Source of the DNA: a virus
Reading direction: 5' to 3' (one strand)
DNA length: 64,000 nucleotides
Virus record (IMG/VR): IMGVR_UViG_3300010370_000028
Span: 71,390 to 135,389 of that record
Under the pieces are notes generated by a model. It was not told the DNA's origin. It ran no database searches and saw only the letters and a program-made list of their open reading frames with translations. This document shows positions 5,132-50,217 of this stretch, in pieces; position 1 is the stretch's first letter; every line of letters begins with the position of its first letter. Made by a program: the position numbers and the translations under genes.

Positions 5132-6193
5132 ATGAAAAAGGTTTTAATAACTGGGGTAACTGGACAAGATGGAAGTCTTATGGCAGATTTTCTTTTAAGA
5201 GAAACTGATTGCATTATTATTGCTGGTGTTAGAAGGCTAAGTGTAAAAAATTATGAAAATATTCAACACCTTCTTGATAATCCAAGATTTAAATTAATTG
5301 ATCTTGATATTACAGATCAATCCAATATTGATAAAGTGGTTCGTGATGAAAGTCCTGATTATTTTATTAATTTTGCTGCAAATTCTTTCGTTGGTAATAG
5401 CTGGACAATGCCAGCGAGTCATTTTACAACAAATTGTCTTCCAGTTTTATATCAATTAGAATCAATAAGAAAATACGTACCTAATTGTAGATATTATAAT
5501 GCTGGCTCTTCAGAAGAATTTGGTGATGTTGTCACAGTACCGCAAAATGAAGAGCATCCACTAAGACCACGTAGCCCATATGGAGCAGCAAAAGCTTCAG
5601 CTAGACATTTAGTTAAAGTTTATCGAGAGTCATATAATCTTTATGCGATTCAGGGTTGGTTGTTTAATCATGAAGGAATAAGAAGGGGTGAAGAGTTTGT
5701 AACTCGTAAAATTACTAAAAACGTTGCTCGTATTAAATACGCTATAGAAAATAAATTAACTTTTGAGCCATTAAAACTTGGCAATCTAGAAGCAAGAAGG
5801 GATTGGAGTGATGCCGAAGATTTTATTGAAGGTGTATGGTTAATGCTCAATCAAGACGAACCAAAAGAATATGTGCTATCCTCAAATGAAACTCATACAA
5901 TTAAAGAATTTGTAGAATTAGCTTTTAAAGCCGCTGGTATTGATGGAATTTGGGTTGGCGAAGATTTAGAAACTTTATATTTATTACCTAATTATTTGAC
6001 TGATTTTACTGATATAACACAATTAAAATTAGTTGAAATTGATGAAAAATTTTATCGCCCCGCTGAAGTTGATCTTCTTTTAGGTGATTCAACTAAGGCT
6101 CGTCAAGAACTTGAATGGCAACCAAAAACATCTTTTAAAGAATTAGTTGACAAAATGGTTAGCCATGATATACTCAAGCATGGCAAAGTCTAA
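5132..6193 (+). CDS. gmd: GDP-mannose 4,6-dehydratase
   Basis: LITGVTGQDGS, SSEEFG, PRSPYGAAK, LFNHE, FVTRKIT, YRPAEVDLLLGD. Confidence 0.95.
   Translation: MKKVLITGVTGQDGSLMADFLLRETDCIIIAGVRRLSVKNYENIQHLLDNPRFKLIDLDITDQSNIDKVVRDESPDYFINFAANSFVGNSWTMPASHFTTNCLPVLYQLESIRKYVPNCRYYNAGSSEEFGDVVTVPQNEEHPLRPRSPYGAAKASARHLVKVYRESYNLYAIQGWLFNHEGIRRGEEFVTRKITKNVARIKYAIENKLTFEPLKLGNLEARRDWSDAEDFIEGVWLMLNQDEPKEYVLSSNETHTIKEFVELAFKAAGIDGIWVGEDLETLYLLPNYLTDFTDITQLKLVEIDEKFYRPAEVDLLLGDSTKARQELEWQPKTSFKELVDKMVSHDILKHGKV
6147..6174 (+). promoter_or_regulatory. sigma70-like promoter of the replication operon
   Basis: TTGACA-16 nt-TATACT, 5 nt before ATG 6180. Confidence 0.7.
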
Positions 6194-6530
6194 AATTAAC
6201 AAAAAACATATTCTTGCCAAATTGACGCTTGTCCCACTAAAGGATAAGCGTTTATTTTATATGCGTGAAATGAAATTTTTAAATATCTTGTGTGAAAGAT
6301 ATTCTTTGGAGTTCATGAATGCAATGACTTTTGATAAAAAGCTAGATTCATTAGCTTATTTAGTTAGCGATAAGCTAAAAGACACCCTAGATCAAAAATT
6401 TAGAGCTTTTAATTTTAAGGTTGACTATTCTCGCTATGAGCAGTATCATATTGGGGATAAGGTTGGAGATGATCCAGTTGTGGAGAAGAAGAAGGTAACA
6501 ATTAAACATTTTTTAAATGAGCAAAACTAA
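6180..6530 (+). CDS. Hypothetical protein
   Basis: ORF directly after the promoter, overlapping the recA-like start. Confidence 0.65.
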   Translation: MAKSKINKKHILAKLTLVPLKDKRLFYMREMKFLNILCERYSLEFMNAMTFDKKLDSLAYLVSDKLKDTLDQKFRAFNFKVDYSRYEQYHIGDKVGDDPVVEKKKVTIKHFLNEQN

Positions 6531-7650
6531 AGATAAAGAAGTAAAAAAATCAACGGATGTTTTAGATTCGTTTTTAAAACAGAATCAGAGTGACCATTAT
6601 AATTTTGAAGAATCAATTGATTATAAAATTTCAAGTGGTTCTCTTCAGTTAGATCTTCATTTGGGTGGCGGTCTTGGACCTGGTTTACATAGATTTGTTG
6701 GCATGAATGAAGGCGGCAAAACTTCTGCCGCACTTTCTTTTATGAAAAACTTCTTGGAAAAAATCCCAAAAGGTAAGGGTTTTTATATTAAGGCTGAAGG
6801 TCGTCTCTCCAATGAAATGATGGAGAGATCTGGGATTAAATTTGTCTTTTCAGCTGAAGAGTGGCAAGAGGGAACCTGTTTTGTATTTGAAAGCAATATT
6901 TATGAAACTGTAGTTGATGTAATGCGTCAGCTTGTTGCTAAAAATGATGAAGGTAACCTGTACTATTTCCTTCTTGATTCGGTTGATGGGCTTATCTCCA
7001 AAGGAGACTTAGATAAGAGCTTTGAAGACTCTAATAAGGTTGCTGGTGGAGCGGTTATTGCCGCCAATTTCATGAAGCGTCTTTCTATTGGATTGGCAAA
7101 GCGTGGGCATATGGCAGTCTTCATTAGTCAAGTAAGGGCCGATATTAAATTAGATCCATATTCTAAAGCTCCAGTTCGTCAGACTACAGCAACTGGTGGT
7201 AACGCCCTTCTTCACTTTGCTAACTGGATTCTTGAATTTGAGCCTCGACATAAAGGAGACTTAATTCTTCAAAACCCAAGTGATACTAAGATTGATATCA
7301 ATAACAACCCAATCGTTGGGCATTTTGCTAAAGTTACTGTTAAGAAATCACCAATTGAGAAAACTAATTTAACAATTGCCTATCCTATCAGATATGGACG
7401 CACTAATGGTAACTCTATATGGATTGAAAAAGAGATTGTTGATATGCTTTATGTTTGGGAGTTTATCAATAAAAAGATGTCTTGGATTACTATTACAGAA
7501 GAATTTAAAGAACTCTTAGCAGAGAATAATCTGGAACTCCCAGAAAAAATTCAAGGAAATGAGAATCTATTTAAATTAATTGAAGAAAACAAAGATCTTT
7601 TATCTTTCTTGATTTCTTATTTTAAGAAGACTATTAATAATGAAATTTAA
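6517..7650 (+). CDS. RecA/UvsX-like recombinase
   Basis: ISSGSLQLD, Walker A GMNEGGKT, Walker B LLDSV, FISQVR, TGGNALLHFA. Confidence 0.9.
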   Translation: MSKTKDKEVKKSTDVLDSFLKQNQSDHYNFEESIDYKISSGSLQLDLHLGGGLGPGLHRFVGMNEGGKTSAALSFMKNFLEKIPKGKGFYIKAEGRLSNEMMERSGIKFVFSAEEWQEGTCFVFESNIYETVVDVMRQLVAKNDEGNLYYFLLDSVDGLISKGDLDKSFEDSNKVAGGAVIAANFMKRLSIGLAKRGHMAVFISQVRADIKLDPYSKAPVRQTTATGGNALLHFANWILEFEPRHKGDLILQNPSDTKIDINNNPIVGHFAKVTVKKSPIEKTNLTIAYPIRYGRTNGNSIWIEKEIVDMLYVWEFINKKMSWITITEEFKELLAENNLELPEKIQGNENLFKLIEENKDLLSFLISYFKKTINNEI

Positions 7651-44596: not shown

Positions 44597-44603
44597 ATCT
44601 CTG

Positions 44604-44631
44604 TTGACAAAAACACAAATTTGATTAAAAT
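44604..44631 (+). promoter_or_regulatory. sigma70-like promoter of the RNA/tRNA array
   Basis: TTGACA-16 nt-TAAAAT. Confidence 0.7.
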
Positions 44632-44638
44632 AAAAATT

Positions 44639-44834
44639 GAAGGTAGTAAACGCCAGAAGTTACTAAGGTCCGAAAGGGAGATTGGGTTGAGATAAACCCA
44701 CTAATTAGAAAGTTTTATATACTTTTCCTTTAGAGGGGTTAAAGGGCTTCATGCCCTGTATCAATATGTAAATGATTTGCAAAAAACCTGCATGTGCGGG
44801 TGAGTAATGAAATGTATATTGATCGCCTCTCTAA
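44639..44834 (+). ncRNA. Unassigned structured RNA(s)
   Basis: Stems TAGTAA/TTACTA, TGGGTT/AACCCA, TTAGAGGGG/CCTCTCTAA, AGGGC/GCCCT, ATCAATATG/TATATTGAT, ACCTGC/GCGGGT; no ORF. Confidence 0.55.
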
Positions 44835-44851
44835 TAGGCATCAATTTTCAT

Positions 44852-44937
44852 GGGTAGATACCCAAGTGGCTAAAGGGGGCAGACTGTAAATCTGCTGATG
44901 TATGTCTACGTTGGTTCGAATCCAACTCTGCCCACCA
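44852..44937 (+). tRNA. tRNA-Tyr(GTA)
   Basis: Cloverleaf, CT-GTA-AA loop, long variable arm, encoded CCA. Confidence 0.95.
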
Positions 44938-44942
44938 TTTTC

Positions 44943-45016
44943 GCGGGATTTGTATAATGGTAATACGCCATCCTTCCAAGTTGGAGTCATCAGTTCGATT
45001 CTGATATCCCGCACCA
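44943..45016 (+). tRNA. tRNA-Gly(TCC)
   Basis: Cloverleaf, CT-TCC-AA loop, CCA. Confidence 0.93.
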
Positions 45017-45020
45017 ATTT

Positions 45021-45463
45021 TTCCCTGCCATTGTAGGCTGAGATCCTGCAATGAGCGAGTTGACAGAGAGCGGGTTAGCAACCCGATGATGTCAAACGTA
45101 ATCCGACACAAATTAAAGTAGGCTTGGAGTCGCTACCAAGATGAAATAGTCACTGTGTTTCTTCAAATTGATCAAAGCTGCGCTTGGTTAATTAATCGGT
45201 AGTGGGGAATATTCGTATCATGCACGAATTAAAATATGTCATGACGCAGCTAGGTGTGGTTCCTAGATAGCCACAGCCCTTGGCGAGTGTGACAGCAATC
45301 TGTTATGGGCAAATCATTTTCTATGTTTTTTCTATTGTGGTCTTTATCGCCCGAAGTATGTTGGGAAAGCAGATTGGAAATCTCCGACGAGCCTCTACTA
45401 GCAGAAAAGTGACAGAAGGATAAACGAGTGGTGTCTTGGACCGAAGCTTCTTCAGCAATAGAA
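45021..45463 (+). ncRNA. Unassigned structured RNAs within the tRNA array
   Basis: Three folded units (45021-45209, 45211-45310, 45330-45463) with nested stems and G-U pairs, GC-richer than the flanks. Confidence 0.65.
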
Positions 45464-45475
45464 AGTTTTTTTAAC

Positions 45476-45497
45476 TCCAAAGTAGCTCAGTTAGTAG
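45476..45497 (+). pseudogene. Truncated tRNA 5' fragment (Asn-like TCC start)
   Basis: TCCAAAG-TA-GCTC-AGTTAGTAG = acceptor 5' strand plus D-arm start; interrupted by the HNH ORF. Confidence 0.65.
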
Positions 45498-46035
45498 TAT
45501 TTAAATTTATTAATTTAAGTCTTTTTCTAATAGATGTTTCAGAAACATTTAAAATTTTTGAAATTTTTATATTTGATAAATTTTGTTTCTTTAATTCAAG
45601 AAGGTCTTTATCTGTAAATTTTCTTTTGTTATTATTATAACAAAGTGTGCAATAATTTGCGCTTGGATCTTTTTGATTACCACAAACACATTTTCTTTTA
45701 TTAGTTATTATTAATTTTTGCTCTTTTAAAAAATCATCATTAAATTGATAAAAATTTGTTGGTAAATCAACATAATTATTATGCACTTCTCTATGACAAT
45801 TTGCACAAAGTAAAATACATTTTTTCAATTCTGGTACGACAACATTATCCCAACTTTTTGGATTTGCGCGAATATTTGCTAATCCAATATCTTTTTTAGA
45901 TGGATCTAAATGATGAAATTCTAAAGATGCATTGCATTTGTTGTAACCGCAAATCTGACAACATCCACCCATACACTTAATCATTTTATCTTTATTATTT
46001 TTTCTCCACTCTTTTACTTTTTCTTTACTCATCAT
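45487..46035 (-). CDS. HNH homing endonuclease with C-terminal Zn ribbon and HTH
   Basis: GGCCQICGY, LEFHHLDP, CILLCANCHREVH; CVCG..CTLC; NIKISKILNVSETSIRKRL. Confidence 0.88.
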   Translation of the reverse strand: MMSKEKVKEWRKNNKDKMIKCMGGCCQICGYNKCNASLEFHHLDPSKKDIGLANIRANPKSWDNVVVPELKKCILLCANCHREVHNNYVDLPTNFYQFNDDFLKEQKLIITNKRKCVCGNQKDPSANYCTLCYNNNKRKFTDKDLLELKKQNLSNIKISKILNVSETSIRKRLKLINLNTTN

Positions 46036-46074
46036 GTAATAATAAGTTTTTAAGTTCGAATTTCAAATTAAACT

Positions 46075-46102
46075 TTGACAAAAAAATATTTTAACATATA
46101 AT
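46075..46102 (+). promoter_or_regulatory. sigma70 promoter restarting the tRNA array after the HNH gene
   Basis: TTGACA-16 nt-TATAAT. Confidence 0.8.
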
Positions 46103-46117
46103 AAAACATAATTTTAA

Positions 46118-46192
46118 TGTAGAGTGGCAGACTAGCAATGCATTCGCCTGTTAAGCGAAACTATGTGGGAGCGTAACCCACCTCTACAGCCA
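46118..46192 (+). tRNA. tRNA-Asn(GTT), atypical D/T loops
   Basis: TGTAGAG/CTCTACA acceptor, TTCGC-CTGTTAA-GCGAA, G73, CCA; T-loop AGCGTAA. Confidence 0.85.
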
Positions 46193-46198
46193 TTTTTA

Positions 46199-46273
46199 GC
46201 CGATTTAGCACAGTGGTAGTGCAACTCATTTGTAATGAGTAGGTCGTTGGTTCGAATCCGACAATCGGCTCCA
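46199..46273 (+). tRNA. tRNA-Thr(TGT)
   Basis: Canonical cloverleaf, CCA. Confidence 0.95.
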
Positions 46274-46279
46274 TTTTTT

Positions 46280-46356
46280 CGGGATGTAACTCAGCTTGGT
46301 AGAGTGCTGCGTTTGGGACGCAGATGTCGCATGTTCGAATCGTGTCATCCCGACCA
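46280..46356 (+). tRNA. tRNA-Pro(TGG)
   Basis: Canonical cloverleaf, CCA. Confidence 0.95.
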
Positions 46357-46359
46357 TTA

Positions 46360-46432
46360 GGGGGTATAGCTCAGTTGGTAGAGCGTTAGCTTTGCAAGCT
46401 AAATGTCTGGGGTTCGAATCCCCATGCCTCCA
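46360..46432 (+). tRNA. tRNA-Ala(TGC)
   Basis: G3-U70, canonical cloverleaf, CCA not encoded (CAA). Confidence 0.95.
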
Positions 46433-46440
46433 CAATTTTT

Positions 46441-46514
46441 CGCACGTTGGCAGAGAAGTCATGCAGTGGTCTGCAAAACCGCATAGTCCAGAGCGTTACT
46501 GGAACGTGCGTCCA
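46441..46514 (+). tRNA. tRNA-Cys(GCA), atypical D/T loops
   Basis: CGCACGT/ACGTGCG acceptor, U73, CCA; T-loop AGCGTTA. Confidence 0.85.
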
Positions 46515-46516
46515 AA

Positions 46517-46589
46517 GGGGAGTTAGCACAGCGGTGGTTGCGTCTGCTTTACACGCAGAATGTCGGGGGTTCGAATCCCTCACTCCCTA
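46517..46589 (+). tRNA. tRNA-Val(TAC)
   Basis: Cloverleaf, TT-TAC-AC loop, no CCA. Confidence 0.92.
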
Positions 46590-46592
46590 TTT

Positions 46593-47903
46593 TTATCTAT
46601 TTATTTCTTCCCAATCTAAAGAACCATAAGCAGTTTCTGAAGCTGTACTTGCGGCAATAGCAAGAGTAAGTTCTGTTGAGGTATTAGTAAATGGATTTCT
46701 TTCTAATTGAAATTTAAGAAGTTCGCTTTTTGGCAAATCAATCTGTGATGATGACTGATTACTTGAACTTATAAACCCTTTTGCTACGACTAAACCACCA
46801 GAAATTGTAGTGCCATCAAGTTTATATTCTACAGCTGAATCGGTTCCAGCAGATACCCAAGTACCATTTGTTGTTGTACCATTCTTAATCAATCTCCATT
46901 CACATATTGATGTATCTACAGTCAATGCGGAAGCGGCAGATGGAACAACTATTGCATCTAATTTATCAGATTTCAATCTTAATGAAACTAAAGGATAAAA
47001 AATACCAGCATCAGTTAAAGATTTAGCGCCAGTTATCGGCGTTCCAATTGCCTGTTGAGTTCCTCTTAATTCATAACCACCCTCAGACATAACAGTTGAA
47101 CATATTTGCTTTAATGTTCCAGATGTAGATAAATTTCCGACATTAAAAATTTCATATCTTAATGGAAGACTTGCGGTTTTTAAATATGTTCCTTGTATTT
47201 GATTAGCATGATGGAATGAATGAGCTAAAATAAATTTACCATCAATTACAAACCCTGCTCTAATTGTTCCTGCACCAAGCCACTCCATGTCATTCCAAAA
47301 TATTTGAGACTTTGTTGAATCTAAAGTATATTGAGAATAACCACTTCCATTTAATTTATCTCCATTCCATTCAGATTGCGGCACTTTAATTTCTATTGGA
47401 CTTCCGCTAATGGAAGTTCTTTTAACTAAATTTAATACAGAACCGCTTTGTTCTATAAAAACACCATCCGCAGAACCAAAATATCCAATTCTTTGTACAA
47501 GATTTGTTTGTGGTGGAGACATTGTAAATGTACTAAGTGACATTAAAGATTTTCCAGGTTGGTAAGGGAAAACTTTTCTCGTTTCTCTATAAATATAGCA
47601 ACCAGAACCAGTCGAAATATTTAAATCCATTAAACCTTGATTTTGATTAAATGTTGCATTGCCTGTACCACCAGTTGCGGTTGCCCACAATCCATTGTCA
47701 GCATATCTATGACTTGAATCAAATAAAGTGAATGGTTCAGATATTCTTAAACGACCAAAACTATCGAAACGAGTTTCTTCAAAACCAAGATCTCCCTTTT
47801 CTATTGGTCTATAATGATCATTATATTTATCATATAAAAAAGGAATCTGTCCTGCCGTATGGGATAATTGTCCAAGATTCTGGAATGTATATTGGTCTGC
47901 CAT
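46593..47903 (-). CDS. Putative virion structural protein (beta-rich)
   Basis: DSFGRLRISEPFTLFD, YQPGKS, EWLGAG motifs; GTGTAA upstream. Confidence 0.65.
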   Translation of the reverse strand: MADQYTFQNLGQLSHTAGQIPFLYDKYNDHYRPIEKGDLGFEETRFDSFGRLRISEPFTLFDSSHRYADNGLWATATGGTGNATFNQNQGLMDLNISTGSGCYIYRETRKVFPYQPGKSLMSLSTFTMSPPQTNLVQRIGYFGSADGVFIEQSGSVLNLVKRTSISGSPIEIKVPQSEWNGDKLNGSGYSQYTLDSTKSQIFWNDMEWLGAGTIRAGFVIDGKFILAHSFHHANQIQGTYLKTASLPLRYEIFNVGNLSTSGTLKQICSTVMSEGGYELRGTQQAIGTPITGAKSLTDAGIFYPLVSLRLKSDKLDAIVVPSAASALTVDTSICEWRLIKNGTTTNGTWVSAGTDSAVEYKLDGTTISGGLVVAKGFISSSNQSSSQIDLPKSELLKFQLERNPFTNTSTELTLAIAASTASETAYGSLDWEEINR

Positions 47904-47985
47904 TCCATTTATTTACACTTTTAATTCGAAAATTGTCTGAAATTCACCTTGACTCTGAGTAAATTCATGCTATGCTAATAACATA

Positions 47986-48375
47986 ATGAAGCTGTACATT
48001 GAAAAATGGGTGACTGAAACAATCTGGACTGGCAAACTTACCAGCATTGATACAGAACTTTTGAGAGAAAGATTCGATAATCTTAAAGAACTTTCTGACG
48101 AAGAGATTATTGAAGAATTGCAAAACAATGATTACCTATATGATCTAAATTATATTCTTGATGATGTCGATGCACTTCATGCCGAAAACTCAAGTGCAGA
48201 AAAATCTCTCGATTATCAAGTTGACATTCATACAAGTGATGATATAATGGATAAACTTGAGTGGAGAGCTTGGTATAGAGGATGTAGAGAATTTCCACGC
48301 TCAGATAAACTTGAGTATGAAAAAGAAAAATTTATTGAAATGATTCCAGAAATAAAAGGTTTTGATATGATTTAA
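47986..48375 (+). CDS. Acidic hypothetical protein
   Basis: ORF after TTGACT(47949)-16 nt-TATGCT. Confidence 0.65.
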   Translation: MKLYIEKWVTETIWTGKLTSIDTELLRERFDNLKELSDEEIIEELQNNDYLYDLNYILDDVDALHAENSSAEKSLDYQVDIHTSDDIMDKLEWRAWYRGCREFPRSDKLEYEKEKFIEMIPEIKGFDMI

Positions 48376-48387
48376 AAGATTTTAAAT

Positions 48388-48465
48388 GCGCGGGTAGTCC
48401 AACAGGTAGGAGACAAGTGACTTAAAATCACTACAGTATGGGTTCGAATCCCATTCCGCGTACCA
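48388..48465 (+). tRNA. tRNA-Leu(TAA), short variable arm
   Basis: AGTGA-CTTAAAA-TCACT, GGTTCGAATCC, CCA. Confidence 0.9.
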
Positions 48466-48478
48466 ATTATAAAATAAC

Positions 48479-48550
48479 ACACCTATAGCTCAATGGCAGA
48501 GCATGGTTCTCATAAAACTGGGGTTATTGGTTCGAGTCCAATTGGGTGTA
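48479..48550 (+). tRNA. tRNA-CAT (Met or Ile2)
   Basis: ACACCTA/TGGGTGT acceptor, CT-CAT-AA loop, no CCA. Confidence 0.88.
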
Positions 48551-48553
48551 TTC

Positions 48554-48910
48554 TTATTGTGAGCCATGATGCACTTCCATATGGCAATTACAACAAAGCA
48601 ATTGACATTTTGAAGCTTCATCTAAAATATAATCTATTCTTCTATTTGATAAACTTCTTATATCTAATTGAAAAGACTTAGTTGATGGATCTAAATGATG
48701 AAACGATAAAGCGGCTAGAGATTTATTATAACCACAAATTTCACAACAACCACCTTTCATTTTAATTAATTCTAATTTACGATCTTTCCCTCTTTTTTGT
48801 TGAGCTTGATAATTTTGATGTTTATGATTAGCAGTAGATTGTTTGCATTTAATAGAACACCATTTAGTTTGATTTCCCGATAAATTTGATTGACAATTTT
48901 GACATTTCAT
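48554..48910 (-). CDS. HNH homing endonuclease with N-terminal Zn finger
   Basis: CQNC...WCSIKC; GGCCEICGY, LSFHHLDP, CQLLCCNCHMEVH. Confidence 0.88.
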   Translation of the reverse strand: MKCQNCQSNLSGNQTKWCSIKCKQSTANHKHQNYQAQQKRGKDRKLELIKMKGGCCEICGYNKSLAALSFHHLDPSTKSFQLDIRSLSNRRIDYILDEASKCQLLCCNCHMEVHHGSQ

Positions 48911-48955
48911 ATAATATTATACACCAATTATGAAATAATTCATAATCTTTTTAAA

Positions 48956-49028
48956 CCTCCGTTAACTCAATCGGCAGAGTACTCTCTTTATAAGGGAGAA
49001 GTTACTGGTTCAAGCCCAGTACGGAGAA
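48956..49028 (+). tRNA. tRNA-Ile(TAT)
   Basis: CTCTC-TTTATAA-GGGAG anticodon arm, ACTGG-TTCAAGC-CCAGT T-arm, C1xA72 mismatch, no CCA. Confidence 0.8.
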
Positions 49029-49044
49029 TTCTTTTCCCAATAAC

Positions 49045-49209
49045 ATGAAAGTAACAATCGAAATCAACGGTGAAAAATTTGAAGCAGAAGGTAATTATAT
49101 TCCTACTGTTTTAGATGAGGTTTTGCATGAGGCGGGAATTCTAGAAGAAGAAGAGAATGTTTTCTTTTTAGATAAAGGTCAGCAAAAGAATTATTATAGG
49201 TATTGTTAA
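49045..49209 (+). CDS. Small hypothetical protein (54 aa)
   Basis: MKVTIEINGEKFEAEG...RYC fills the gap between two tRNAs; below ORF-track cutoff. Confidence 0.5.
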   Translation: MKVTIEINGEKFEAEGNYIPTVLDEVLHEAGILEEEENVFFLDKGQQKNYYRYC

Positions 49210-49212
49210 ATG

Positions 49213-49303
49213 GGGTAGATGGCTGAGTTGGTCTAAGGCGCTCGACTTGAAATCGAGAGAGGTTTAATCGCCTCCGTGGGTTCGAATCCTACTCTACCCG
49301 CCA
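49213..49303 (+). tRNA. tRNA-Ser(TGA)
   Basis: Long variable arm, G73, CCA. Confidence 0.95.
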
Positions 49304-49350
49304 TTTTTATATTTTAAAAATGTGTATATACACATATAATATAAAAGACA

Positions 49351-50217
49351 ATGGCGCAAAGAAAAATCTCTTTAAGACCCTATAAAGGTGCTGGATCAGT
49401 TACAAATATTACCTGCGGTGTTAGTAACCCAAAGGTTGGTGGATCTATAGATCTTTCTCCATTTGTAAATTTAGTTACTTTTGTTTGTGATTCAAATGAT
49501 ATCACTTCTCTTACTGGTTATGAAGATAAAGAAAAATTAGAAACTTTATCATTTTTTAGTAATAAAATTGTTGGCCCTCTTCCAAATATTAGTCAACTCA
49601 AAAAATTAAGACTTTTTAACTGTTATCGTAATTTACTTGTTGGTAATTTTCCAAGTGTTGGTGGATTAGTTAATTTAGAAACAATTAACTTTTATGAAAA
49701 CTATACTCTTTCTGGACCAATACCCGATTTAACTGGTTTAACTAAATTAAAAGTTTTAAGTTGTTATAGAAATTCTCTTACTGGATCTATTCCAGCAAGT
49801 ATAAATGCATCATCTGGTTTAGAAACTTTCAACTGTTACGAAAATCAACTAACTGGACAAATTCCAAATGTTAGTAATTTAAGTAATTTGAAATTTTTTA
49901 GGTGCTATTCAAATCAGTTAAGTGGATCTATCCCAGACCTTAGCAATTTAACTAGTTTACAAATTTTTAACTGTGCTGGTAATCAATTAACAGATTATGT
50001 TGGAGGTACAATTTCAAATACTATACAAATAGTTCAAATACAAAATAATTCTTTAAATTCTTCGGCTGTAGATAGATTCTTGGGGGCTTTAGTAGCTACT
50101 AATACAACAGGTAGAACTTTATATATGGGTGGAACAAATTCACCACCAACTTCTGTAGGAAATGGATATTTATTAGATCTTGCAGGTAGGGGTTGGACTA
50201 TAATAATAGTCAGTTAA
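49351..50217 (+). CDS. Leucine-rich repeat protein
   Basis: Tandem 23-24 aa LxxLxxFxCxxNxLxGxIP repeats. Confidence 0.88.
   Translation: MAQRKISLRPYKGAGSVTNITCGVSNPKVGGSIDLSPFVNLVTFVCDSNDITSLTGYEDKEKLETLSFFSNKIVGPLPNISQLKKLRLFNCYRNLLVGNFPSVGGLVNLETINFYENYTLSGPIPDLTGLTKLKVLSCYRNSLTGSIPASINASSGLETFNCYENQLTGQIPNVSNLSNLKFFRCYSNQLSGSIPDLSNLTSLQIFNCAGNQLTDYVGGTISNTIQIVQIQNNSLNSSAVDRFLGALVATNTTGRTLYMGGTNSPPTSVGNGYLLDLAGRGWTIIIVS

Follow-up and report, generated by a model that had tools for sequence, protein, structure and literature searches.

An HNH endonuclease gene and a substitute tRNA-Asn in place of a phage tRNA-Asn gene: a candidate homing cassette

Why would a phage carry the first bases of a tRNA-Asn gene, an endonuclease gene running into them from the opposite strand, and then a complete tRNA-Asn gene built in a different way? 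The question is raised by a 64,000-nucleotide stretch of the IMG/VR virus record IMGVR_UViG_3300010370_000028 (positions 71,390 to 135,389; hereafter the window, whose numbering we use unless a contig is named). It is an AT-rich piece of a lake-phage genome, and its tRNA cluster, delimited with ARAGORN and Rfam, occupies 44852-49303. Within the cluster, 697 bases (45492-46188) stand in place of positions 17-72 of a resident tRNA-Asn gene; they hold an antisense HNH gene of 182 amino acids, two promoter-like sites placed back to back, and a tRNA-Asn(GTT) gene with non-canonical D and T loops. We propose, with a probability of roughly 0.65, that this replacement is a free-standing HNH homing cassette, which would cut canonical tRNA-Asn DNA in co-infecting relatives, be copied in by repair, and keep asparagine decoding through a linked gene that the enzyme could not cut.

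Replacement of the resident tRNA-Asn gene

The stub of the resident gene (45476-45497, plus strand) consists of the 5' half of the acceptor stem, the D stem and some D-loop-like bases, and its positions 1-16 (45476-45491) are those of a canonical allele found in relatives. The HNH gene, an open reading frame (ORF) on the minus strand (45487-46035), takes its last four codons and its stop codon from the stub; the stop, TCA on the plus strand (45487-45489), lies within the D stem, as a preliminary description of this sequence had stated. A promoter-like site directed toward the HNH gene, TTGAAA-16-TATTAT (46039-46066, minus strand), matched the consensus at 10 of 12 positions in our scan. Facing the other way, the sigma-70-type promoter-like site TTGACA-16-TATAAT (46075-46102, plus strand) matched at all 12, exactly as had been claimed for a consensus promoter here; it lies 15 bases 5' of the substitute tRNA and is the top-scoring promoter-like site between 44600 and 46700. 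The substitute tRNA-Asn(GTT), a tRNA by Rfam, follows at 46118-46192 on the plus strand (the tRNA itself at 46118-46189, the encoded CCA to 46192). After it come a spacer and tRNA-Thr(TGT) (46193-46273, plus strand; called by ARAGORN, 73.1 bits in Rfam), which are common to all alleles with this junction. Every element previously listed here, including two short candidate relics, GTTCGAAT and CTTTGA, lies at the coordinates given for it. Rfam detected no intron family in window 44600-49600 at E <= 1, and the HNH ORF is a separate gene on the opposite strand. The GC content of the HNH gene and cassette is 0.20-0.30, as against 0.31-0.38 in adjacent coding DNA.

We collected relatives of this locus with two sequence patterns. 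A 34-base pattern from the conserved upstream block retrieved 12 viral contigs, and a 30-base pattern across the junction between the tRNA-Asn end and tRNA-Thr retrieved seven metagenome contigs of both allele types; two of these seven are, judged by length, the same records as the contigs of L011 and L020, and distinct contigs were counted once. The whole cassette is present at 91-97% identity in four of the 12 upstream-block contigs (L008-L011). Five others (L017-L021) lack the HNH gene and have an intact tRNA-Asn(GTT), called by ARAGORN, with the same tRNA-Thr six bases on. Two (L022 and L023) have a tRNA-Asn with a group I intron in the anticodon loop, and the last (L024), the nearest relative genome-wide (83% over 4.9 kb), has a further tRNA-Asn variant and no HNH gene. 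Within the junction set, two of the seven contigs carry the cassette (L026 being identical to the window), three carry the canonical allele, and two carry a second canonical allele in which the acceptor and anticodon stems are altered by paired changes. At one locus with common flanks, therefore, the HNH gene is present in the window and five other contigs and absent from 12. The odd tRNA-Asn goes with it strictly: all five other HNH-bearing contigs have it and none of the 12 HNH-less contigs does, whereas its presence in HNH-less relatives was the outcome that the preliminary description had named in advance as telling against its account. Five of those 12 carry tRNA-Asn alleles other than the predicted one.

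The edges of the replacement follow from the same comparison. BLAST homology to HNH-less contigs (97.0% identity over 45326-45491 to L017, L019, L020 and L021) ends at 45491, after the 16 bases that the canonical tRNA-Asn shares with the stub, and restarts at 46177-46273 (94.8%); resident positions 17-72 have thus been swapped for 45492-46188. At the stub's place, L017-L021, L030 and L031 have an intact canonical tRNA-Asn. These seven contigs, which are of one genotype, show the TCCAAAG...GTT...CTTTGGA gene, unaccompanied by an atypical tRNA-Asn, that had been predicted for HNH-less relatives, and the stub, being the first 16 bases of that intact allele inside a 97.0%-identical block, is a real tRNA-Asn fragment and not a chance resemblance. 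The conserved non-coding block 5' of the site (45326-45475, plus strand) is likely to act as the left homology arm for recombination, and the spacer with tRNA-Thr(TGT) is likely to be the right one. The consensus promoter-like site is retained in L009-L011 and reads TTGAAA plus TATAAT, by eye, in L008. No record in the GenBank phage collection covered at least 80% of 44800-46700.

The intron of L022 and L023 represents a third allelic state of the gene. It is about 200 bases long and lies after CTGT (the gene being at L022:4538-4808), and in L022 it matches RF00028 with 72.2 bits (E 1.5e-18).

The stub is not the same in all cassettes. Its acceptor half reads TCCAAAG in the window, L026 and L011, as in the first canonical allele, and TCCGATT in L008, L009 and L010, as in the intron-bearing allele of L023; a 115-base upstream insert is common to L008, L022 and L023. 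It appears that the left edge of the cassette has exchanged DNA with two or more different resident alleles, each time within the gene's first 14-16 bases. Two stub alleles are compatible with variable co-conversion tracts or with repeated invasion, and later crossovers could leave the same pattern. Contigs from four public runs, belonging to four studies, span the whole cassette; the runs were picked because they hold it, and so have no bearing on its frequency. Both forms of the locus occur in one run from a lake sample (X14), which contains a cassette contig with the TCCGATT stub and another contig, of the HNH-less form, in which 45491 is followed directly by 46188.

Differences among the cassettes fall unevenly on their parts. 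The HNH gene differs from that of L009 and L010 at six positions, all synonymous, and from that of L011 by four synonymous changes and one non-synonymous change, giving ratios of non-synonymous to synonymous substitution (dN/dS) of 0-0.05 against L009-L011. Against L008, the most distant copy, 51 of 549 bases differ, with a dN/dS of 0.09. In the same comparison with L008, the substitute tRNA and the spacer with tRNA-Thr show one difference each (in 75 and 81 bases, respectively), while the spacer holding the promoter-like sites shows 16 in its 82 bases and the stub 6 in its 24. The low dN/dS, together with the one change in the tRNA as against six in the stub, indicates that the enzyme and the substitute tRNA are under constraint and that the stub is not.

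The substitute tRNA and the relics beside it

Rfam recognizes the substitute as a tRNA (RF00005) at 46.8 bits, with a gathering threshold of 29 (E 6e-8, positions 1-71 of 71), in agreement with the earlier claim of an intact but atypical tRNA-Asn(GTT) downstream of the HNH gene. It is the sole tRNA-Asn among the 11 tRNAs that Rfam finds in the window. Its anticodon GTT sits in the loop CTGTTAA, and a discriminator G precedes the encoded CCA. In the Rfam alignment, the D loop reads ACTAGCA, without the canonical GG, and the T loop reads AGCGTAA in place of the canonical TTCRA; because of these two loops, ARAGORN does not call the gene. For the asparaginyl-tRNA synthetase of Escherichia coli, the identity elements are the anticodon GUU and the discriminator G73. 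The 72-base substitute keeps the anticodon, G73 and the U1-A72 pair, so it should still be charged with asparagine and retain Asn decoding; none of its stems, and neither of the conserved loops, is the same as in the canonical gene, which should let it escape cleavage.

A similar design occurs nearby. At 46440-46514 we read a tRNA-Cys(GCA)-like gene with good stems, a T discriminator, and the same kind of odd D arm and T loop (AGCGTTA) as in the substitute. It is reported by neither ARAGORN nor Rfam (E <= 5), and it is identical in the HNH-less contig L024 (6846-6919).

We can offer one tentative explanation of the odd loops, possible rather than probable. The rewired elbow of the substitute (A54/U58 for T54/A58, and A18/G55 for G18/psi55; positions read off the Rfam alignment, in tRNA numbering) may be an evolved disguise at the DNA level against homing nucleases, and isotype-specific HNH lineages may be natural cleave-and-rescue drives in phage tRNA arrays. 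Such swaps would preserve the three-dimensional contacts of the elbow yet erase two sequence blocks that are read by homing nucleases that cut tRNA genes. If this were true, HNH drives would be a main cause of odd phage tRNA shapes, among them introns, T loops with swapped bases and the long variable arms of tRNA-Asn.

Between the HNH gene and the substitute lie the two short sequences in which remains of a tRNA had been suspected. GTTCGAAT (46054-46061, plus strand) is on the same strand as the stub and in the right order relative to it. The window contains 10 copies of this sequence where 1.72 are expected, and seven of the 10 lie in tRNA T loops. By our arithmetic, the odds of a chance copy on the right strand of the 82-base spacer are about 0.001, so GTTCGAAT is likely to be, as supposed, the T-loop relic of a tRNA first split by the HNH gene. 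An alternative suggestion, that it is an autorepression operator, found no support: L008 reads GTTCGGAT at this place, which breaks the palindrome. As for CTTTGA, it does lie at 46073-46078, but its reading as an acceptor relic is doubtful, since it forms part of the -35 hexamer. It is also unchanged in L009 and L010, which have the TCCGATT stub, although a relic carried within the cassette need not covary with the stub.

The D-loop-like bases 3' of 45491 are unlike the canonical allele but appear again in L056, where a related HNH gene interrupts another phage tRNA. Our reading of the cassette's origin is that an HNH gene split a tRNA, leaving the 5' stub and the 3' relic, that the odd tRNA-Asn lay or was placed downstream, and that the unit may then have spread into canonical sites.

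The HNH enzyme, its family and its neighborhood

The 182-residue protein matches phrog_35854, 'HNH endonuclease', with E 6e-35. In Pfam it scores 23.3 bits against PF21368, barely above the cut-off of 23, and falls under the cut-off of PF13391. A zinc-bound HNH domain forms its N-terminal part, a Cys4 ribbon its middle, and a helix-turn-helix its C-terminal part. All residues that are invariant among 40 aligned family members (C26, C29, H41, H42, C77, C80, H81 and H85) are kept, as is N79, which is found in at least 90% of them. The protein has the His...Asn...His motif framed by two CxxC zinc pairs that marks HNH (beta-beta-alpha-metal) endonucleases. It matches HNH families alone and has no GIY-YIG domain, and thus is not SegB or another GIY-YIG member of the Seg group. 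The structure model has a predicted local distance difference test score (pLDDT) of 90.1. A Foldseek search of the Protein Data Bank (PDB) with this model returned nothing at E <= 0.001; of the weak rows at the top of the list (E 0.02-0.8), almost every one is an HNH nuclease, Cap5, McrA, Gme HNH, T5 SciA and the HNH domain of Cas9 among them. A profile search of PDB sequences gave no hits. The C-terminal tails are unconserved across the family, in keeping with an ORF that continues into flanking sequence, as this one does into the stub.

Among 1216 candidates of similar length, 1106 are relatives of the enzyme at E <= 0.001. One cluster at 99% identity has 12 members on eight contigs, and all other relatives are at most 49% identical. 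The family is closely associated with tRNA genes: in 72 of 79 further viral loci a tRNA lies within 1.5 kb, and in 65 of the 79 within 300 bases. Dereplication at 90% left 63 loci, 56 of them with a tRNA. The nearest tRNA is tRNA-Asn in 24 of the 56, where 8.3 are expected if a random tRNA of the same flank is taken, and none of 100,000 permutations reached 24. Asn accounts for 39 of the 338 tRNAs at the dereplicated loci, and ARAGORN overlooked odd tRNA-Asn genes at six further loci. A quick tree of the nuclease domain (110 columns, 34 of 63 forks open, seven labels assigned by hand) puts the window enzyme in a clade of 40 rows, with a Shimodaira-Hasegawa-like approximate likelihood ratio test (SH-aLRT) value of 91, of which 29 are Asn-linked. 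Ile-linked rows group elsewhere, and the Asn and Ile labels need fewer changes on the tree than in any of 500 shuffles.

Stubs of tRNA genes at the ends of HNH ORFs recur in the family, by eye, at L056, L058 and L065. A blastn-short hunt for stubs near the 63 homologous loci was insensitive, in that it missed the window's own stub, our positive control. At L056, the HNH gene interrupts a tRNA-Ile(GAT)-like gene, and an intact tRNA-Ile(TAT) comes next; at L058, an Asn-like 3' stub sits at the HNH stop codon, and at L065 a 5' stub immediately precedes the start codon (all by eye).

The tRNA-Asn genes at these loci are often unusual in shape. Over the 63 dereplicated loci of the HNH family (L033-L111), 14 of 39 tRNA-Asn genes are at least 80 bases long without CCA, which indicates long variable arms, compared with 16 of 260 genes of other normally short-armed isotypes (Fisher p 1.4e-6). 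In several of the tRNA-Asn genes, T-loop positions 54 and 58 have changed places (GGATCGTT), or the T loop reads GGCAGTA. At six loci (L034, L038, L050, L068, L073 and L075), a conserved inverted repeat lies between tRNA-Asn and the HNH start, its 3' arm containing a GAGG-like ribosome site (seen by eye in the 80 bases before the start). Hairpins that hide the ribosome site are known from T4 homing nuclease genes, and the repeat looks like a hairpin of that kind. The window cassette does not have one.

The enzyme also has cultured relatives: an enzyme with 43% identity across 92% of its length is encoded by the Sinorhizobium phages phiM12, phiM7 and phiM19. In phiM12 (L112:1957-2077; NC_027204.1, about 94960-95080), the HNH gene overlaps a tRNA-Asn gene tail to tail. 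The anticodon loop of that tRNA-Asn is enlarged by about 46 inserted bases, which contain a T-arm-like hairpin, and the gene is annotated as 'tRNA-OTHER', pseudo.

A second HNH gene of the window (48554-48910, minus strand; 118 amino acids) lies between tRNA-Met and tRNA-Ile(TAT). It is 51% identical to the first over 76 amino acids and matches the same PHROG families. This paralogue is missing from L009-L011, whose neighboring tRNAs also differ, and it sits on a long branch and was not placed in the tree; it appears to be a separate insertion of the same HNH family. In L009 (5868-6061), and likewise in L010 and L011, the tRNA-Met and tRNA-Ile(TAT) that ARAGORN reports measure 84 and 92 bases and apparently have long variable arms. 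The matching site of the window has an ordinary tRNA-Met and tRNA-Ile(TAT) of 72 and 73 bases, separated by the second HNH gene.

An arrangement with a different nuclease is seen in L022 (4833-5700). There, a variant tRNA-Thr(TGT) that ARAGORN missed (44 bits in Rfam) is accompanied by an antisense gene for an unrelated HNH protein of 254 amino acids, whose end overlaps that tRNA and which is followed by a 3' stub (T arm and acceptor) of another tRNA; in relatives the site is an ordinary tRNA-Thr. This appears to be the same cassette design built around another nuclease. A GIY-YIG gene follows at 5966-6643, and the tRNA region of L022 also holds a full-length tmRNA gene (1823-2189; RF00023, 78.4 bits).

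Two further features of the region concern the flanks. Between tRNA-Gly and the stub lies a GC-rich (0.40-0.48) non-coding block of about 460 bases (45017-45475). It is partly conserved among relatives, in mosaic fashion, and contigs with the canonical allele have about 1.2 kb of other DNA inside it. We considered it as a known or unusually stable RNA and rejected the idea: there was no Rfam match over 45014-45500, and the folding z-score was -0.06. On the other side, tRNA-Pro and tRNA-Ala (46280-46433) are missing from L009-L011; in those contigs the tRNA-Cys-like gene comes immediately after tRNA-Thr. The break sits in T-arm sequence, which suggests recombination between tRNA genes.

Proposed mechanism, rival readings and known systems

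On the reading that we prefer, the cassette would move when an HNH-bearing and an HNH-less phage share a cell. The enzyme would nick or cut the canonical tRNA-Asn gene, and repair templated by the HNH-bearing genome would copy the cassette in. The left arm would be formed by the 5' end of the tRNA gene and the upstream non-coding block, and the right arm by the discriminator, CCA, spacer and tRNA-Thr. The promoter-like site of the substitute would then drive both the substitute and the downstream tRNAs past the antisense insert. The HNH gene is intact and shows purifying selection, its distribution is patchy, and its family goes with tRNA-Asn genes; these properties fit a homing element aimed at the tRNA-Asn gene and lend support to the selfish cleave-and-replace interpretation of the preliminary description.

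Several observations weigh against this reading. The T-loop relic in the cassette points to an origin in two steps, in which an HNH gene entered one of a pair of Asn genes, and not to a unit made from the start to cleave and replace. The odd D-arm and T-loop design also occurs in the tRNA-Cys-like gene of the HNH-less L024 and is therefore older or broader than the cassette. Since the D and T loops are canonical in the window's other tRNAs, the target cannot be set by the sequence of the loops alone and must include Asn-specific bases; the cut site could also be elsewhere, for instance in the spacer or in tRNA-Thr. No terminator-like site was detected in the region, and the cassette's own promoter may therefore not be needed. 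There are few independent lineages, with about four HNH-bearing genotypes, and the seven contigs with the first canonical allele are identical over the stretch compared (six were aligned). Finally, the HNH-less joint in run X14 is a single contig with 30 bases on its shorter side and a minimum likeness of 88%, and was flagged as borderline.

Some of these points also fit an incidental landing, an account that we consider unlikely. An ancestor would have had a canonical and an odd tRNA-Asn in tandem, and the HNH gene entered one of them or recombined it away; the odd tRNA would then be no part of immunity or rescue, and the target need not be tRNA-Asn DNA. The relic between the HNH gene and the odd tRNA implies that the split tRNA once had its own 3' part upstream, two tRNA-Asn genes do stand beside some family members (L066, L095 and L109), and the odd design is also found outside the cassette. 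Yet none of the 12 HNH-less contigs has the odd tRNA-Asn or a tandem pair at this position, the family-wide enrichment of tRNA-Asn as nearest tRNA is hard to explain without Asn-directed targeting, and the two stub alleles argue for repeated recombination at the tRNA-Asn gene.

The remaining readings give the tRNA or the enzyme another role. The odd tRNA-Asn might have evolved mainly to evade host tRNA nucleases, with the HNH gene spreading or amplifying it, as SegB does for tRNA-Tyr against Septu. SegB drives amplification of phage tRNA genes that neutralize a tRNA-cleaving defense, and segB is widely associated with tRNAs (PMC13096335); the excess of long variable arms in family-locus tRNA-Asn would suit such a history. 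We nevertheless think it improbable, because the anticodon loop, the usual target of anticodon nucleases, is the same (CTGTTAA) in canonical and odd alleles, there is one copy and no amplification in the window, and our analysis identified no defense system that targets tRNA-Asn. Very improbable, in our judgment, is a domesticated HNH protein that regulates or processes the tRNA operon in a non-selfish way through its helix-turn-helix, with GTTCGAAT as operator. The protein does have a C-terminal helix-turn-helix, and GTTCGAAT does lie within the promoter-like site toward the HNH gene. However, the gene is patchy among close relatives, with both alleles in one sample, has low GC, and keeps all catalytic and zinc residues; the putative operator is altered in L008, and family members turn up widely in the tRNA arrays of phages that are not related to one another.

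If the homing reading is right, the cassette may help to explain the odd structures of phage tRNA genes, especially tRNA-Asn, and the frequency with which tRNA finders miss them. It also provides natural tRNA scaffolds with altered elbows that may still function, and its family points to the Sinorhizobium phages phiM12, phiM7 and phiM19 as cultured systems.

Homing nucleases usually spare their carrier by means of a self-splicing intron or a slightly altered copy of the target alongside. The cassette would add a third route in natural sequence: it removes the greater part of a tRNA gene and brings along an independently built gene for that tRNA. The closest known system, and a precedent by analogy, is T4 SegB. 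SegB has a preferred 27-bp site, T-loop motif included, inside the tRNA-Asn gene of T2L, a relative without SegB, and homing replaces the recipient's tRNA region with the donor's (PMC2330249); the site of the cassette's enzyme would likewise lie in tRNA-Asn. Both nuclease genes stand among phage tRNA genes and are widely associated with tRNAs (PMC2330249 and PMC13096335). Unlike the window enzyme, which is an HNH protein, SegB is a GIY-YIG nuclease; T4 keeps no stub of the cut gene, and the SegB system has no structurally rewired tRNA. To our knowledge, the T4 donor region is without any tRNA-Asn, and hence without a like-for-like substitute.

In the intronless homing of T4 SegF, SegG and MobE (PMC2330249, PMC2790892), the endonuclease gene stands beside the gene that is cut in relatives, the linked allele escapes by virtue of sequence differences, and flanking markers are co-converted, all of which would apply here too. 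Their target is a protein gene and the linked allele differs by few substitutions, whereas the window cassette deletes most of an RNA gene and carries a differently built gene for the same tRNA with a promoter-like site. Group I introns, some with homing endonucleases, occupy tRNA anticodon loops (PMC3984707). Like the cassette, they are mobile elements in a tRNA gene that preserve its function, and in L022 and L023 one has hit the same tRNA-Asn gene; unlike it, they restore the tRNA by splicing, while here a stub of 16-22 bases cannot be rejoined and a second gene would restore function. HNH genes are the most widespread coding genes in the tRNA arrays of mycobacteriophages and mycobacterial plasmids, and have been proposed as generators of diversity in tRNA repertoires; the accessible part of that report describes no split tRNA, linked substitute or isotype specificity for them (PMC5966550).

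Our literature search, which did not extend to supplements or to Pope et al. 2014, found no description of a cassette that pairs a nuclease with a substitute tRNA. Nuclease genes in phage tRNA clusters are thus known, and what appears to be new is the pairing of a nuclease that deletes most of a tRNA gene with an independently built gene for that tRNA that has a promoter-like site of its own. The logic of the proposed cassette is that of engineered cleave-and-rescue (ClvR) drives, and it would let an element take over a useful gene while the phage retains what that gene provides. Synthetic ClvR drives use a nuclease to inactivate the wild-type allele of a gene that is needed, and rescue carriers with a tightly linked, recoded copy that it cannot cut; these drives are engineered with Cas9 and guide RNAs against protein genes of animals, and they spread by killing non-carriers and not by copying into the cut site. 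The cassette resembles them in pairing a nuclease with a linked, separately built copy of its presumed target gene, and differs in being natural, in having an RNA gene as its target, and in its proposed spread by copying into the cut site.

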